Positions 1 to 54,705 of a stretch of 64,000 nucleotides of DNA are shown one piece after another. Numbering within the stretch: the stretch's first letter is position 1; the number at the start of each line of letters is the position of its first letter. Source of the stretch: Escherichia coli (lineage in GTDB: Bacteria > Pseudomonadota > Gammaproteobacteria > Enterobacterales > Enterobacteriaceae). The stretch lies in the NCBI RefSeq assembly GCF_003334765.1, contig NZ_QOWT01000007.1; one strand, 5' to 3'. A program made the position numbers and the translations under genes. The notes below the pieces were generated by a model, which was not told where the DNA came from, searched no databases, and saw only the letters and a program-made list of their open reading frames with translations.

Positions 1-1429
<1,429 letters not shown>

Positions 1430-1527
1430 TATTGCTGACACGGTTTTCCCCTCACCCTAACCCTCTCCCCAGAGGGGCGAGGGGACCGACCGAGCGCCTT
1501 TTTGACTCTGTACACGGTTAACACTTT

Positions 1528-1563
1528 GCCGGATGCGGCGTGAACGCCTGATCCGGCCTACGG
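1528..1563. repeat. REP (repetitive extragenic palindromic) element in pstA-pstB spacer
   Basis: gccggatgcggcgtgaacgcctgatccggcctacgg matches the E. coli REP consensus; preceded by a GC-rich imperfect palindrome at about 1446-1485. Confidence 0.6.
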
Positions 1564-1572
1564 TAAGCCTGA

Positions 1573-2385
<813 letters not shown>

Positions 2386-2399
2386 TTCAGGAGTGCGTT

Positions 2400-3125
2400 A
2401 TGGACAGTCTCAATCTTAATAAACATATTTCCGGCCAGTTCAACGCCGAACTGGAAAGTATCCGCACGCAGGTGATGACCATGGGCGGCATGGTGGAGCA
2501 GCAGCTTTCTGATGCAATCACCGCGATGCATAACCAGGACAGCGATCTGGCGAAGCGCGTCATCGAAGGCGACAAGAACGTCAACATGATGGAAGTGGCG
2601 ATCGATGAAGCCTGCGTGCGCATTATCGCCAAACGTCAGCCGACGGCGAGCGACCTGCGACTGGTTATGGTGATCAGTAAAACCATTGCCGAGCTGGAGC
2701 GTATTGGCGACGTGGCGGACAAAATCTGCCGTACTGCGCTGGAGAAATTCTCCCAGCAGCATCAGCCGTTGCTGGTAAGTCTGGAGTCGCTGGGCCGTCA
2801 TACCATCCAGATGCTGCACGACGTGCTGGACGCGTTCGCGCGGATGGACATTGACGAAGCGGTACGTATTTATCGTGAAGATAAAAAAGTCGATCAGGAA
2901 TACGAAGGTATTGTTCGTCAACTGATGACCTACATGATGGAAGATTCGCGTACCATTCCGAGCGTACTTACTGCGCTGTTCTGCGCGCGTTCTATCGAAC
3001 GTATTGGCGACCGCTGCCAGAATATTTGTGAGTTTATCTTCTACTACGTGAAGGGGCAGGATTTCCGTCACGTCGGTGGCGATGAGCTGGATAAACTGCT
3101 GGCGGGGAAAGATAGCGACAAATAA
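2400..3125 (+). CDS. phoU: phosphate signalling regulator PhoU
   Basis: 241-aa product [14 protein letters not shown]... from ATG at 2400 (ORF track start 2382 is an upstream in-frame extension); follows pstB. Confidence 0.93.
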
Positions 3126-3133
3126 TTCACCAG

Positions 3134-3175: not shown

Positions 3176-3320
3176 CTTTATAAATTCCTAAAATTACACA
3201 AAGTTAATAACTGCGAGCATGGTCATATTTTTATCAATAGCGCATTGCTATTTTCTCTGCACGCAATTAAATTAATTTCCGAACCTGGATGTTCGTTATA
3301 AAAACCATTAATAAATGACT
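3176..3320 (+). promoter_or_regulatory. bgl promoter / AT-rich silencer region with candidate CRP site
   Basis: Strongly AT-rich segment upstream of the bglG leader; CRP-like motif tgcgagcatggtcata at about 3212-3227; no IS insertion present. Confidence 0.5.
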
Positions 3321-3346
3321 GGATTGTTACTGCATTCGCAGGCAAA

Positions 3347-3349
<3 letters not shown>
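3321..3349 (+). promoter_or_regulatory. RAT1 (ribonucleic antiterminator) target of BglG in bgl leader
   Basis: ggattgttactgcattcgcaggcaaaacc; near-identical copy at 4267-4296; overlaps 5' arm of the following terminator. Confidence 0.8.
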
Positions 3350-12004
<8,655 letters not shown>

Positions 12005-46374: not shown

Positions 46375-49695
<3,321 letters not shown>

Positions 49696-49861: not shown

Positions 49862-51814
49862 ATGAATTCGTTACAAATCTTGAGTTTTGTCGGTTTTACG
49901 CTGCTGGTGGCGGTGATCACCTGGTGGAAGGTCCGCAAAACAGATACCGGATCGCAACAAGGCTATTTTCTTGCCGGACGTTCACTAAAAGCGCCGGTTA
50001 TTGCCGCTTCGTTAATGCTAACCAACCTTTCCACGGAACAACTGGTCGGCCTTTCCGGGCAGGCCTACAAAAGCGGCATGTCGGTGATGGGCTGGGAAGT
50101 GACTTCAGCGGTGACGCTGATCTTCCTCGCGCTAATCTTTTTACCGCGCTATCTGAAGCGCGGCATTGCCACCATCCCCGATTTTCTGGAGGAACGTTAT
50201 GATAAAACGACGCGTATTATCATCGACTTCTGCTTCCTAATTGCCACCGGCGTCTGCTTTCTGCCGATTGTTCTCTACTCCGGCGCGTTGGCGCTCAACA
50301 GCCTGTTTCACGTCGGGGAATCGCTACAGATTTCTCACGGTGCGGCTATCTGGCTACTGGTAATTTTGCTTGGTCTGGCGGGAATTTTGTATGCGGTGAT
50401 CGGCGGACTGCGCGCAATGGCAGTGGCGGACTCCATCAACGGTATTGGGCTGGTTATCGGCGGGTTGATGGTGCCGGTATTTGGCCTGATCGCGATGGGC
50501 AAGGGCAGCTTTATGCAGGGCATTGAGCAACTCACCACCGTTCACGCCGAGAAATTAAACTCAATCGGTGGCCCGACCGATCCCTTGCCGATTGGCGCGG
50601 CATTTACCGGTTTGATTCTGGTGAACACCTTTTACTGGTGTACAAATCAGGGCATCGTGCAACGCACGCTGGCGTCAAAAAGCCTGGCGGAAGGGCAAAA
50701 GGGGGCGCTGTTAACGGCGGTGCTGAAAATGCTCGACCCGCTGGTACTGGTGCTGCCAGGGTTGATTGCGTTTCATCTGTATCAGGATTTACCGAAAGCC
50801 GACATGGCCTACCCGACGCTGGTCAATAACGTTCTGCCAGTGCCAATGGTGGGTTTCTTCGGCGCGGTGTTATTTGGTGCGGTGATCAGTACCTTCAACG
50901 GCTTTCTGAATAGCGCCAGTACGTTATTCAGTATGGGTATTTACCGTCGCATCATTAACCAGAATGCCGAGCCGCAGCAGCTGGTCACCGTCGGGCGCAA
51001 ATTTGGTTTCTTTATCGCTATCGTTTCGGTGCTGGTCGCGCCGTGGATCGCCAACGCGCCGCAGGGGCTGTATAGCTGGATGAAACAGCTCAACGGCATT
51101 TACAACGTGCCGCTGGTTACCATCATCATTATGGGCTTTTTCTTCCCGCGCATCCCGGCGCTGGCGGCAAAAGTAGCGATGGGGATTGGCATAATCAGCT
51201 ACATCACCATCAACTATCTGGTGAAGTTCGACTTCCATTTCCTCTATGTGCTGGCCTGTACGTTCTGCATCAACGTGGTCGTGATGCTGGTGATCGGTTT
51301 TATCAAACCGCGCGCCACGCCGTTCACCTTCAAAGATGCGTTTGCGGTGGACATGAAACCGTGGAAAAACGTCAAGATCGCGTCAATTGGCATCCTGTTC
51401 GCGATGATTGGCGTCTATGCCGGGCTGGCTGAATTCGGCGGCTACGGTACGCGCTGGTTAGCGATGATCAGTTATTTCATTGCCGCCGTAGTGATTGTCT
51501 ACCTGATTTTTGACAGCTGGCGGCGGAAGGTATTCGCTTTAATTCCGCCTACACCTGTTCACCGGTTTGTACGCCTGCACGGGCCGGACTATTTACCGGT
51601 ATCTACGCTAACCAGTCCGGCCCGTGGACCAACAACGTCGCGCCAGGCAAAAACATCTCCACTATGGGGCGCTACTTTAAGGATGCCGGCTATCACACCT
51701 GTTACATCGGCAAATGGCATCTCGACGGTCATGACTATTTCGGCACTGGCGAGTGTCCGCCGGAGTGGGACGCTGATTACTGGTTCGATGGGGCGAACTA
51801 TCTTAGCGAACTGA
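49862..51814 (+). CDS. yidK: sodium:solute symporter (SSS family) YidK; 3' end aberrant, reads out of frame into yidJ
   Basis: First ~552 codons are a typical SSS transporter; the last ~100 codons are low-complexity out-of-frame translation of the sulfatase gene. Confidence 0.6.
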   Translation: MNSLQILSFVGFTLLVAVITWWKVRKTDTGSQQGYFLAGRSLKAPVIAASLMLTNLSTEQLVGLSGQAYKSGMSVMGWEVTSAVTLIFLALIFLPRYLKRGIATIPDFLEERYDKTTRIIIDFCFLIATGVCFLPIVLYSGALALNSLFHVGESLQISHGAAIWLLVILLGLAGILYAVIGGLRAMAVADSINGIGLVIGGLMVPVFGLIAMGKGSFMQGIEQLTTVHAEKLNSIGGPTDPLPIGAAFTGLILVNTFYWCTNQGIVQRTLASKSLAEGQKGALLTAVLKMLDPLVLVLPGLIAFHLYQDLPKADMAYPTLVNNVLPVPMVGFFGAVLFGAVISTFNGFLNSASTLFSMGIYRRIINQNAEPQQLVTVGRKFGFFIAIVSVLVAPWIANAPQGLYSWMKQLNGIYNVPLVTIIIMGFFFPRIPALAAKVAMGIGIISYITINYLVKFDFHFLYVLACTFCINVVVMLVIGFIKPRATPFTFKDAFAVDMKPWKNVKIASIGILFAMIGVYAGLAEFGGYGTRWLAMISYFIAAVVIVYLIFDSWRRKVFALIPPTPVHRFVRLHGPDYLPVSTLTSPARGPTTSRQAKTSPLWGATLRMPAITPVTSANGISTVMTISALASVRRSGTLITGSMGRTILAN

Positions 51815-52908
51815 CGGAAAAAGAGATTAGCCTGTGGCGCAATGGCCTAAACAGCGTCGAAGATTTACAGGCGAACCATATCGACGAAACCTTCACCTGG
51901 GCGCATCGTATCAGCAATCGGGCGGTGGATTTTCTGCAACAGCCTGCGCGCGCAGACGAGCCTTTCCTGATGGTGGTTTCGTATGATGAGCCGCATCACC
52001 CGTTCACCTGTCCGGTGGAGTATTTAGAGAAATACGCTGATTTTTACTACGAGCTGGGCGAGAAAGCACAGGATGACCTGGCTAACAAACCGGAACATCA
52101 CCGCTTATGGGCGCAGGCGATGCCATCGCCAGTCGGTGATGACGGGCTTTATCACCATCCGCTCTATTTTGCCTGTAATGACTTTGTTGATGACCAAATC
52201 GGACGGGTCATCAATGCCTTAACGCCAGAGCAACGTGAAAATACGTGGGTTATTTATACCTCCGATCACGGCGAAATGATGGGCGCACATAAGCTGATCA
52301 GTAAAGGGGCGGCGATGTATGACGACATCACCCGCATTCCGCTGATCATCCGTTCGCCGCAAGGGGAGCGGCGACAGGTCGATACGCCAGTCAGTCATAT
52401 CGATTTACTGCCGACAATGATGGCGCTGGCAGATATTGAAAAACCAGAGATTCTGCCGGGGGAAAATATCCTTGCCGTGAAAGAGCCACGCGGCGTGATG
52501 GTGGAATTTAACCGCTACGAGATTGAGCATGACAGCTTTGGCGGTTTTATTCCGGTGCGTTGCTGGGTGACGGATGACTTTAAACTGGTACTCAACCTCT
52601 TCACCAGTGATGAACTTTACGATCGCCGTAATGACCCAAATGAAATGCATAACCTGATCGATGATATCCGTTTTGCAGACGTTCGCAGCAAAATGCATGA
52701 CGCCTTATTGGATTACATGGACAAAATTCGCGATCCGTTCCGCAGTTACCAATGGAGTCTGCGTCCGTGGCGTAAAGATGCACGGCCGCGCTGGATGGGG
52801 GCGTTTCGTCCACGTCCACAAGATGGCTATTCGCCAGTTGTACGCGACTATGACACCGGCCTACCGACACAAGGGGTGAAGGTGGAGGAGAAAAAACAGA
52901 AGTTCTGA
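51514..52908 (+). pseudogene. yidJ: sulfatase YidJ, 5'-truncated
   Basis: Sulfatase signature CTPAR (Cys codon 51568-51570) within QLAAEGIRFNSAYTCSPVCTPARAGLFTG lies in frame upstream of the first ATG (51664); in-frame TGA at 51511 leaves no room for the conserved N-terminal domain. Confidence 0.55.
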
Positions 52909-53859: not shown

Positions 53860-54211
53860 CCGCAAAGCCAGACGCATTGCCGACCCAGGACTGCAGCCGG
53901 AGCGCACATCACTGGCGTGGTTTCGTACCATGCTGGGCTACGGCGCGTTGATGGCGTTGGCTATCAAACACAACTGGCACCAGGCGGGCATGTTATTCTG
54001 GATTTCGATTGGCATTCTCGCCATCGTGGCGCTGATCCTCTGGCACTACACCCGTAATCGCAATTTAATGGATGTCACGAATAGCGATTTTTCCCAATTT
54101 CACGTAGTCCGTGACAAATTTTTGATCTCCCTCGCGGTGTTATCTCTCGCAATACTGTTTGCTGTAACGCATATACATCAACTTATCGTATTTATTGAGA
54201 GAGTCGCATGA
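53849..54211 (+). CDS. yidG: inner membrane protein YidG (DUF202)
   Basis: 120-aa ORF overlapping yidH 3' end by 11 nt. Confidence 0.8.
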   Translation: MPDSRKARRIADPGLQPERTSLAWFRTMLGYGALMALAIKHNWHQAGMLFWISIGILAIVALILWHYTRNRNLMDVTNSDFSQFHVVRDKFLISLAVLSLAILFAVTHIHQLIVFIERVA

Positions 54212-54705
54212 CAGGAAGTCAGGTCATTGATGCTGAAGAGGACAGGCATAAACTGGTTGTAGAGTACAAGGATGCTCTGCAACCTGCCGATTTTTATCAC
54301 AATTTCAAACAGCGGGGCATCCGCTCCGTACAGCTCATTCCCTATCTTGAATTTGATGACCGGGGCGATCTGACGGCCGCTTCGGTGACAGCAGAGCTGT
54401 GGGGGAAATTTTTAATTGCCCTGTTCGAGTGTTGGGTGCGGGCAGATATCAGTCGTATCTCGATTGAGCTTTTTGACGCCACCTTACAAAAATGGTGTGG
54501 CAGCGAAAACCCGCAACCGCGCTGTGACTGCCAGGCGTGCGACTGGCATCGCCTGTGCCCGCACGCTCGGCAGGAGACGCCAGACAGCGTGCTTTGTGCG
54601 GGCTATCAGGCGTTTTATTCTTACTCCGCACCGCATATGCGGGTGATGCGTGATCTGATAAAGCAGCATCGTTCTCCCATGGAGCTGATGACGATGCTGC
54701 GGTGA
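54208..54705 (+). CDS. yidF: truncated anaerobic sulfatase-maturase-like protein YidF (C-terminal Cys-rich domain only)
   Basis: 165-aa ORF with Cys cluster CDCQACDWHRLCP...C but no CxxxCxxC radical-SAM motif; overlaps yidG stop. Confidence 0.8.
   Translation: MTGSQVIDAEEDRHKLVVEYKDALQPADFYHNFKQRGIRSVQLIPYLEFDDRGDLTAASVTAELWGKFLIALFECWVRADISRISIELFDATLQKWCGSENPQPRCDCQACDWHRLCPHARQETPDSVLCAGYQAFYSYSAPHMRVMRDLIKQHRSPMELMTMLR

Follow-up and report, generated by a model that had tools for sequence, protein, structure and literature searches.

The analysed window, a 64-kb stretch of an Escherichia coli genome, is collinear with K-12 MG1655, from which it differs only by 10 SNPs and one 159-bp deletion. 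The deletion lies in a cluster at 48.8-54.7 kb that is arranged as yidL / yidK-yidJ / yidI / yidH-yidG-yidF (Table 1). In this cluster yidL, yidI, yidH, yidG and yidF are intact, as is the neighbouring emrD. In the intact operon of K-12 and BL21, yidK encodes a 571-aa SSS-family symporter and yidJ encodes a 497-aa S1 sulfatase, and the two genes overlap by ATGA. These reference lengths agree with the sizes given in a preliminary description of the window (about 571 and 497 aa). Compared with that operon, the window has the same locus with the same neighbours (yidL, yidI, yidH, yidG, yidF), and the coding sequence that is left specifies unchanged protein, but 159 bp are lacking, the tail of YidK is frameshifted and yidJ has no start. 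The supposed maturase partner, yidF, has the same length of 165 aa in the window and in every fetched annotation, including K-12, BL21-derived and deletion-carrying genomes; its profile match covers only positions ~160-245 of 363, with 75 bits against a cut-off of 349.

Table 1. Coordinates of the features at the yidL-yidF cluster in the window.
Feature	Position	Strand	Basis or remark
yidL, divergently transcribed AraC-family regulator, intact, 297 aa	48802..49695	-	annotation of carriers
Chimeric ORF, 650 aa, yidK codons 1-554 joined out of frame to yidJ	49862..51814	+	TGA stop 51812-51814
Native yidK part, codons 1-554	49862..51523	+	protein 100% identical to reference YidK
Extended imperfect repeat context	51510..51524	.	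second MG1655 BLAST segment begins 51510, one gap; printed contexts
In-frame TGA closing the yidJ frame on the 5' side	51511..51513	+	translation
Deletion junction, one remaining CTGGCGGC copy (8-bp direct repeat)	51517..51524	.	two copies 159 bp apart in intact genomes
yidJ remnant, reference codons 35-497 and stop, pseudogene	51517..52908	+	no amino-acid substitutions
Novel 96-residue tail (RKVFALIPPTPVHRF...GRTILAN), yidJ out of frame	51524..51811	+	translation
Sulfatase signature CTPAR, Cys52 to Arg56	51568..51582	+	Cys codon 51568-51570
Longest canonical-start ORF in the yidJ frame, 414 aa from Met84	51664..52908	+	without Asp12 and Cys52
yidF, 165 aa, fragment-length relative of anaerobic sulfatase maturases	54208..54705	+	profile match

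Alignment with the BL21-derived BLK16 left exactly 159 bp of the yidK–yidJ junction without a counterpart in the window, and the alignment with MG1655 showed the same 159-bp gap, which also sets the window apart from about 5,000 other complete E. coli genomes; the loss had earlier been estimated at about 150-160 bp. A 701-bp junction query matched 5,115 of the 5,426 complete E. coli genomes, and in the rows sampled from these matching genomes it always aligned as two pieces over ~860 bp. The deletion removes the last 17 codons and the stop codon of yidK, together with the Shine-Dalgarno sequence GGAAGGA, the ATG and codons 1-34 of yidJ. The preliminary description had allowed that the reference yidJ might itself begin downstream of 51511, which would speak against a truncation; the reference ATG is instead located inside the deleted 159 bp. 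The deleted DNA was not found relocated elsewhere in the 64-kb window.

In the intact sequence the missing segment is bordered on either side by the 8-bp string CTGGCGGC (L002, positions 2818 and 2977, 159 bp apart), which is the sole exact direct repeat of at least 8 bp in the 281 bp examined. One copy is located at yidK codons 552-555 and the other at yidJ codons 35-37. Both belong to a longer imperfect repeat, in which the left copy TTGACAG-CTGGCGGC and the right copy TTGATAGTCTGGCGGC of intact genomes match in 14 of 16 columns. After the deletion exactly one copy is left, and the flanks are seamless and the same as the reference on both sides, with no mobile-element, foreign or filler DNA. 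The earlier proposal of a microhomology-type deletion truncating the 5' end of yidJ is thus borne out by the two 8-bp direct repeats between which it lies. A shared string at the junction had also been correctly noticed, but the string is CTGGCGGC at 51517-51524 and not cagctgg.

Deletion endpoints at short direct repeats, with one copy kept and no filler, are the textbook signature of slipped-strand mispairing. In E. coli, deletions of this kind are classic for spontaneous lacI deletions and for the RecA-independent deletion assays of later years. The yidK-yidJ case is alike in all these respects and has nothing unusual: its endpoints coincide exactly with repeats (8 bp exact, ~16 bp imperfect) that are separated by fewer than 200 bp, a single copy survives and no DNA has been inserted. 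The ancestor would have contained the two CTGGCGGC copies 159 bp apart within the longer imperfect repeat of ~16 bp, and a single misalignment between the copies would lead to the loss of one copy and of everything between. RecA-independent slipped-strand mispairing at replication is the most likely mechanism as read from the junction signature alone, a scar which other microhomology-dependent routes leave as well. Secondary structure aiding the slippage was considered and found unpersuasive; since the deleted interval gave nothing better than weak inverted repeats (80% complementarity over 15 nt; 7-nt arms), hairpin assistance is not invoked.

The 650-aa ORF had been described as YidK joined to out-of-frame yidJ, and this holds, the first 554 residues being identical to reference YidK. 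The symporter part had been taken as normal to about codon 552; it is native indeed, but its native end is Arg554, directly after Trp553. Beyond this point the yidK reading frame continues for 96 codons across yidJ, out of register with the yidJ frame. The native C-terminus of YidK (HRHDPAVTFTPDGKDSL) and the stop codon are absent, 17 residues being swapped for the 96 out-of-frame residues. We found no recognisable features in this 96-residue tail, which is out-of-frame sulfatase sequence only, and beyond residue 560 it contains no strongly hydrophobic segment (maximum 19-residue Kyte-Doolittle mean 1.24). The hydropathy peaks are as in the reference, and the last hydrophobic segment of YidK is kept (centres of the scanning window 539-545). 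Against the YidK equivalog NCBIfam NF007790, the chimera scored 856.0, compared with 856.6 for intact YidK and a cut-off of 401, and the match runs end to end as in intact YidK (chimera residues 1-526 corresponding to profile positions 1-527 of 527). The unchanged score and the kept hydrophobic segment indicate that the YidK transporter core is intact. Judging from the sequence, the chimeric YidK with its complete core may still work despite the aberrant tail.

The situation of yidJ is more severe. Translation of the yidJ frame confirmed the in-frame TGA, the catalytic Cys codon and the first start at the positions given in the preliminary description. Upstream of the ATG at 51664 the frame translates as ...F-stop-QLAAEGIRFNSAYTCSPVCTPARAGLF..., and after the TGA it continues as ...LAAEGIRFNSAYTCSPVCTPAR. 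The first ATG/GTG/TTG of the frame is at 51664 and corresponds to Met84, downstream of the catalytic Cys52. It had been stated that 19 codons without a start separate the TGA from the Cys; no canonical start is present, as claimed, but the codons number 18. The signature CTPAR, with the residue that is converted to formylglycine, is still encoded in this frame. It falls after the in-frame TGA (51511) and before any canonical start (the first is at 51664), and would not be translated by normal initiation. Two non-canonical starts before Cys52 (CTG at 51517 and ATT at 51532) were considered and rejected: neither has a usable Shine-Dalgarno spacing, and the products would still lack Asp12. The 414-aa ORF has no Shine-Dalgarno-like sequence in the printed sequence upstream of 51664, and it matches sulfatase profiles from position 86-89 onward only.

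With codons 1-34, yidJ has lost the first strand of the sulfatase fold, which contains the conserved metal ligand Asp12. When YidJ is aligned with solved S1 sulfatases, the match begins at residue 2, and Asp12 takes the conserved metal-ligand position, equivalent to TDEH in 9ihk and FDDM in 6pt4. The missing N-terminus had been said to include a metal-binding Asp pair; the metal-binding Asp12 is lost as stated, but YidJ has Asp12-Thr13 and no Asp pair. It had also been claimed that no other frame encodes the sulfatase N-terminus, in agreement with our tblastn search of the window, which revealed no N-terminal sulfatase segment elsewhere, the best stray match (E ~0.05) being inside dnaN. Both the N-terminal metal-Asp strand and the start codon with its ribosome-binding site, which are expected of a formylglycine-dependent S1 sulfatase gene, are absent from the remnant. 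As no canonical start precedes Cys52, an active sulfatase cannot be made. Stripped of its Shine-Dalgarno sequence, ATG and codons 1-34, yidJ in the window is therefore a pseudogene.

Carriers of the deletion were searched with a 46-bp query centred on the junction, of which neither half alone was able to seed a megablast hit. The identical junction was found in 45 of the 5,426 complete genomes (0.8%), which come from many laboratories, hosts and countries and include NCTC9087, NCTC9100, ML35 and the O157:H16 strain 98-3133. The sources of the carriers were humans, chickens, pigs, a dog, a crow, vegetables and wastewater, on several continents. Moreover, the exact 650-aa protein was present on at least 1,000 contigs and the exact 414-aa product on 798 contigs. 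In the carriers with fetched annotation, PGAP labels yidK as 'missing C-terminus' and yidJ as 'incomplete; missing N-terminus', both as partial pseudogenes. The allele is therefore already known, as the public PGAP annotation flags both genes as pseudogenes; none of the papers covered by our literature search on yidJ and yidK discusses it, and the genes have only incidental mentions in gene lists there. Considering the carriers together with the junction, we regard it as highly probable that the deletion in the window is genuine and that this 159-bp allele of the yidK-yidJ operon has been inherited vertically.

Nine carriers were fetched, and over 12 kb they differ by 0-3 SNPs from the window and from each other, all on one K-12-like haplotype. 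One of the nine has a Tn3 insertion in the 12-kb region. Non-carriers have the 12-kb haplotype as well: sampling the ranking at even steps gave a share of ~15% of genomes, and over these 12 kb the window is separated from the best non-carriers by 1 SNP. The flank haplotype alone was rejected as a test of monophyly, since a haplotype common to ~15% of genomes including non-carriers is uninformative. We used allele-specific 55-bp queries to test the nesting of SNPs within the carriers. The 53932-A allele was found in only 2 genomes, both of them carriers, and the 55529-G allele of the window (in emrD) in only 11 genomes, all of them carriers; the two informative SNPs are thus nested in the carrier set, with no four-gamete violation. 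Farther away, 12 of the best 13 matches to window positions 1-25000, which are 26-51 kb from the deletion, were carriers.

From the nested SNPs and the enrichment among near relatives, and not from a genome-wide tree, a single origin is probably to be favoured. The deletion event was probably fairly recent and took place in the K-12-like lineage, as suggested by the yidJ remnant, which has no amino-acid changes.

The same slippage might also have happened several times at a hot spot, so that the 45 carriers would not form one clade. The repeat substrate for this was found in every intact genome examined, and an ST131 genome (phylogroup B2, 3% divergent) has both repeats unchanged and in the same surroundings. 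Many non-carriers share the flanking haplotype of the carriers, and the carriers belong to several serotypes (O157:H16, O2:H16) and hosts. However, ~85% of genomes are of other haplotypes with the same repeats, and still all fetched carriers are of one haplotype; the absence of any four-gamete violation at the two informative SNPs and the strong enrichment of carriers among the closest relatives of the window 26-51 kb away also argue against recurrence. The carrier LR-64-2 and the non-carrier LR-64-1 are seemingly from the same sample series and could be taken as a deletion arisen de novo. This was rejected because over 47 kb the two are separated by 6 SNPs and 2 indels, and additionally by an island adjoining tRNA-Sec; they are different strains. 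We therefore consider recurrence improbable.

The single deletion is not the only way in which E. coli has lost yidJ. A +1 frameshift, caused by a single C insertion at nt 332, was found in 411 complete genomes of the ST131 type, whose annotations give the gene either as yidJ or as a pair of sulfatase fragments. The ST131-type allele and that of the window are both independent, lineage-fixed inactivations of yidJ; the former is an insertion on a haplotype ~3% divergent that leaves yidK untouched, whereas the latter is a deletion. The junction region was unmatched in a further ~311 complete genomes, and in some of these an IS200/IS605 tnpA remnant with a TnpB gene occupies the place of yidL-yidK-yidJ-yidI (e.g. 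MSB1_1D). This loss of the whole cluster is also a natural route to the absence of YidJ, but here several genes were replaced together in connection with a mobile element, in contrast to the microhomology deletion of the window. With the 45 carriers included, no intact yidJ is present in ~14% of complete genomes. The loss of yidJ is thus common; in E. coli the gene has been inactivated several times independently, the allele of the window being one case.

Inactivation in at least three independent ways could reflect selection against yidJ, and the allele may be selected and not neutral, either because the loss of YidJ is advantageous in the gut or because the tailed YidK is altered in transport, activity, stability or regulation. 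The persistence of the allele, its spread to many hosts and continents and the fully intact transporter core would agree with this. Relaxed selection explains the repeated loss equally well, however, and the allele probably persists because yidJ is dispensable. Nothing recognisable is encoded in the tail, which is simply yidJ sequence in a wrong frame, only 0.8% of complete genomes have the allele, and our literature search gave no link between yidJ or yidK variation and a phenotype in the carrier strains. Selection on the allele is accordingly judged very unlikely.

The preliminary description had also worried that the junction was an assembly error, in which case the strain would have an intact yidK-yidJ. 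Small collapses are possible at repeats, and the related assembly MLI104K2 has a clearly corrupted consensus in the same segment, so the stretch can be mis-called. Against an error of assembly or consensus in the source genome stand the identical junction in 45 independent complete assemblies and the exact chimeric protein on at least 1,000 contigs. The later, derived SNPs are nested within the carriers as expected of a real inherited allele, and an 8-bp repeat is far too short for an assembly collapse. The worry is dispelled by these observations, and such an error is hardly credible.

The opposite polarity, with the short form as the ancestor and a gain of the 159 bp by other strains, has only the formal symmetry of an indel in its favour and a negligible chance of being right. 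The 159 bp contain the stop of yidK, the start of yidJ and conserved fold elements, whose alignment with solved sulfatases begins at residue 2. YidK is 571 aa in other genera (Citrobacter and Klebsiella), and the segment is present in all other E. coli haplotypes examined, phylogroup B2 included. The length of YidK in these genera and the conserved fold elements in the deleted segment indicate that the long form is ancestral.

The deletion in the window is thus real and has made a lineage-specific pseudogene, but it is ordinary, belongs to a mechanistically well-understood type and matters little except for the quality of annotation. Database proteins named 'solute:sodium symporter' (650 aa) and 'sulfatase-like hydrolase' (414 aa) stem from one pseudogenising deletion and should not be taken for genuine protein variants. 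The allele is also a handy lineage marker, with a junction PCR product 159 bp shorter, and the sublineage that it marks comprises K-12-like E. coli including ML35, NCTC9087, NCTC9100 and O157:H16 strains. About one in seven complete E. coli genomes is without an intact yidJ, and this is the background against which a function of the uncharacterised sulfatase/transporter pair is to be assigned.

The window is the oriC-proximal pstC-bgl-tna-dnaA-gyrB-dgo-ibp-yid-ilvBN-uhp region (1-64000); across its 64 kb, only 10 SNPs separate it from K-12 MG1655. Exact matches to its 12-kb and 25-kb haplotypes were found in SHP24 and the isolates IAL7250/52/54/55, members of an 11-genome subclade, marked by 55529-G in emrD, within the carriers of the 159-bp yidK–yidJ deletion.

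Features of the window and of loci fetched from other E. coli genomes (L handles; coordinates internal to each locus)
Feature	Sequence	Coordinates	Strand	Remark
glv PTS gene	window	46375-47991	+	intact 538-codon ORF
Family-4 glycosyl hydrolase (6-phospho-alpha-glucosidase) remnant	window	47991-48805	+	adjoins glv PTS gene
yidF, 165 aa	window	54208-54705	+	annotated 'radical SAM protein'; partial match to anaerobic sulfatase maturase model
Smeared yidJ stretch	L001 (NZ_CP116925.1, strain MLI104K2)	about 2905-2976		corresponds to the right half of the 159 bp that the window lacks
Tn3-family transposon in glv PTS gene	L011 (NZ_OZ547038.1, isolate AF58)	1-1424
yidJ split by frameshift	L012 (ST131 strain MB1341)	3240-4734		window yidJ equivalent about 51750
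yidL-yidK-yidJ-yidI replacement	L013 (strain MSB1_1D)	4313-6093
dgoK (2-dehydro-3-deoxygalactonokinase)	L017 (LR-64-2)	9257-10134		annotated frameshifted

Upstream of the cluster, the glv PTS gene of MG1655 is interrupted by a stop at codon 369, because of the SNP at window position 47479. In both the window and K-12, only about 815 bp of the family-4 glycosyl hydrolase gene remained, and this remnant was frameshifted; in BL21-type strains the gene is intact (1,323 bp). In AF58, one of the deletion carriers, the Tn3-family insertion in the glv PTS gene sits just upstream of the cluster. Another carrier, LR-64-2, has a dgoK frameshift annotated neither in the window nor in K-12, which is either a sequencing error or one more sporadic pseudogene.

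Of the 363 positions in the anaerobic sulfatase maturase profile, the yidF product covered just about 160-245; its score was 75 bits, where the cut-off is 349. The N-terminal radical-SAM core appears to be missing from it. Its length was equal in the window, the K-12 and BL21-derived annotations and the fetched carriers.

The genome of MLI104K2 is non-deleted and its flanks are otherwise identical to the window, but a "smeared", homopolymer-like consensus (GAAACCCCGGCCCCAAAAATGGGGGGGGGGTTAGGGGGAAACCCCCGAAAAAAAAAAAAAATATTTTTTT) replaces the normal yidJ sequence, and the gene is "frameshifted" in the PGAP annotation. The smeared run begins directly past the TCGTCATGACC repeat and its end is exactly the right CTGGCGGC copy. 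This stretch has the look of an artefact of consensus calling or polishing, and a region of mixed or low coverage is a possible source.

The yidK-yidJ junction region was unmatched in about 311 complete genomes. Strain MSB1_1D is without yidL, yidK, yidJ and yidI, and the site from yidL to yidI holds a degraded IS200/IS605 tnpA and an intact TnpB gene (InsQ-family RNA-guided endonuclease). In MB1341, yidJ is broken into two CDS by a +1 C insertion at nt 332, and the locus also misses yidI and the glv genes; an allele-specific query detected the insertion allele in 411 of the 5,426 complete genomes. The +1 C frameshift is a yidJ inactivation independent of the deletion in the window.
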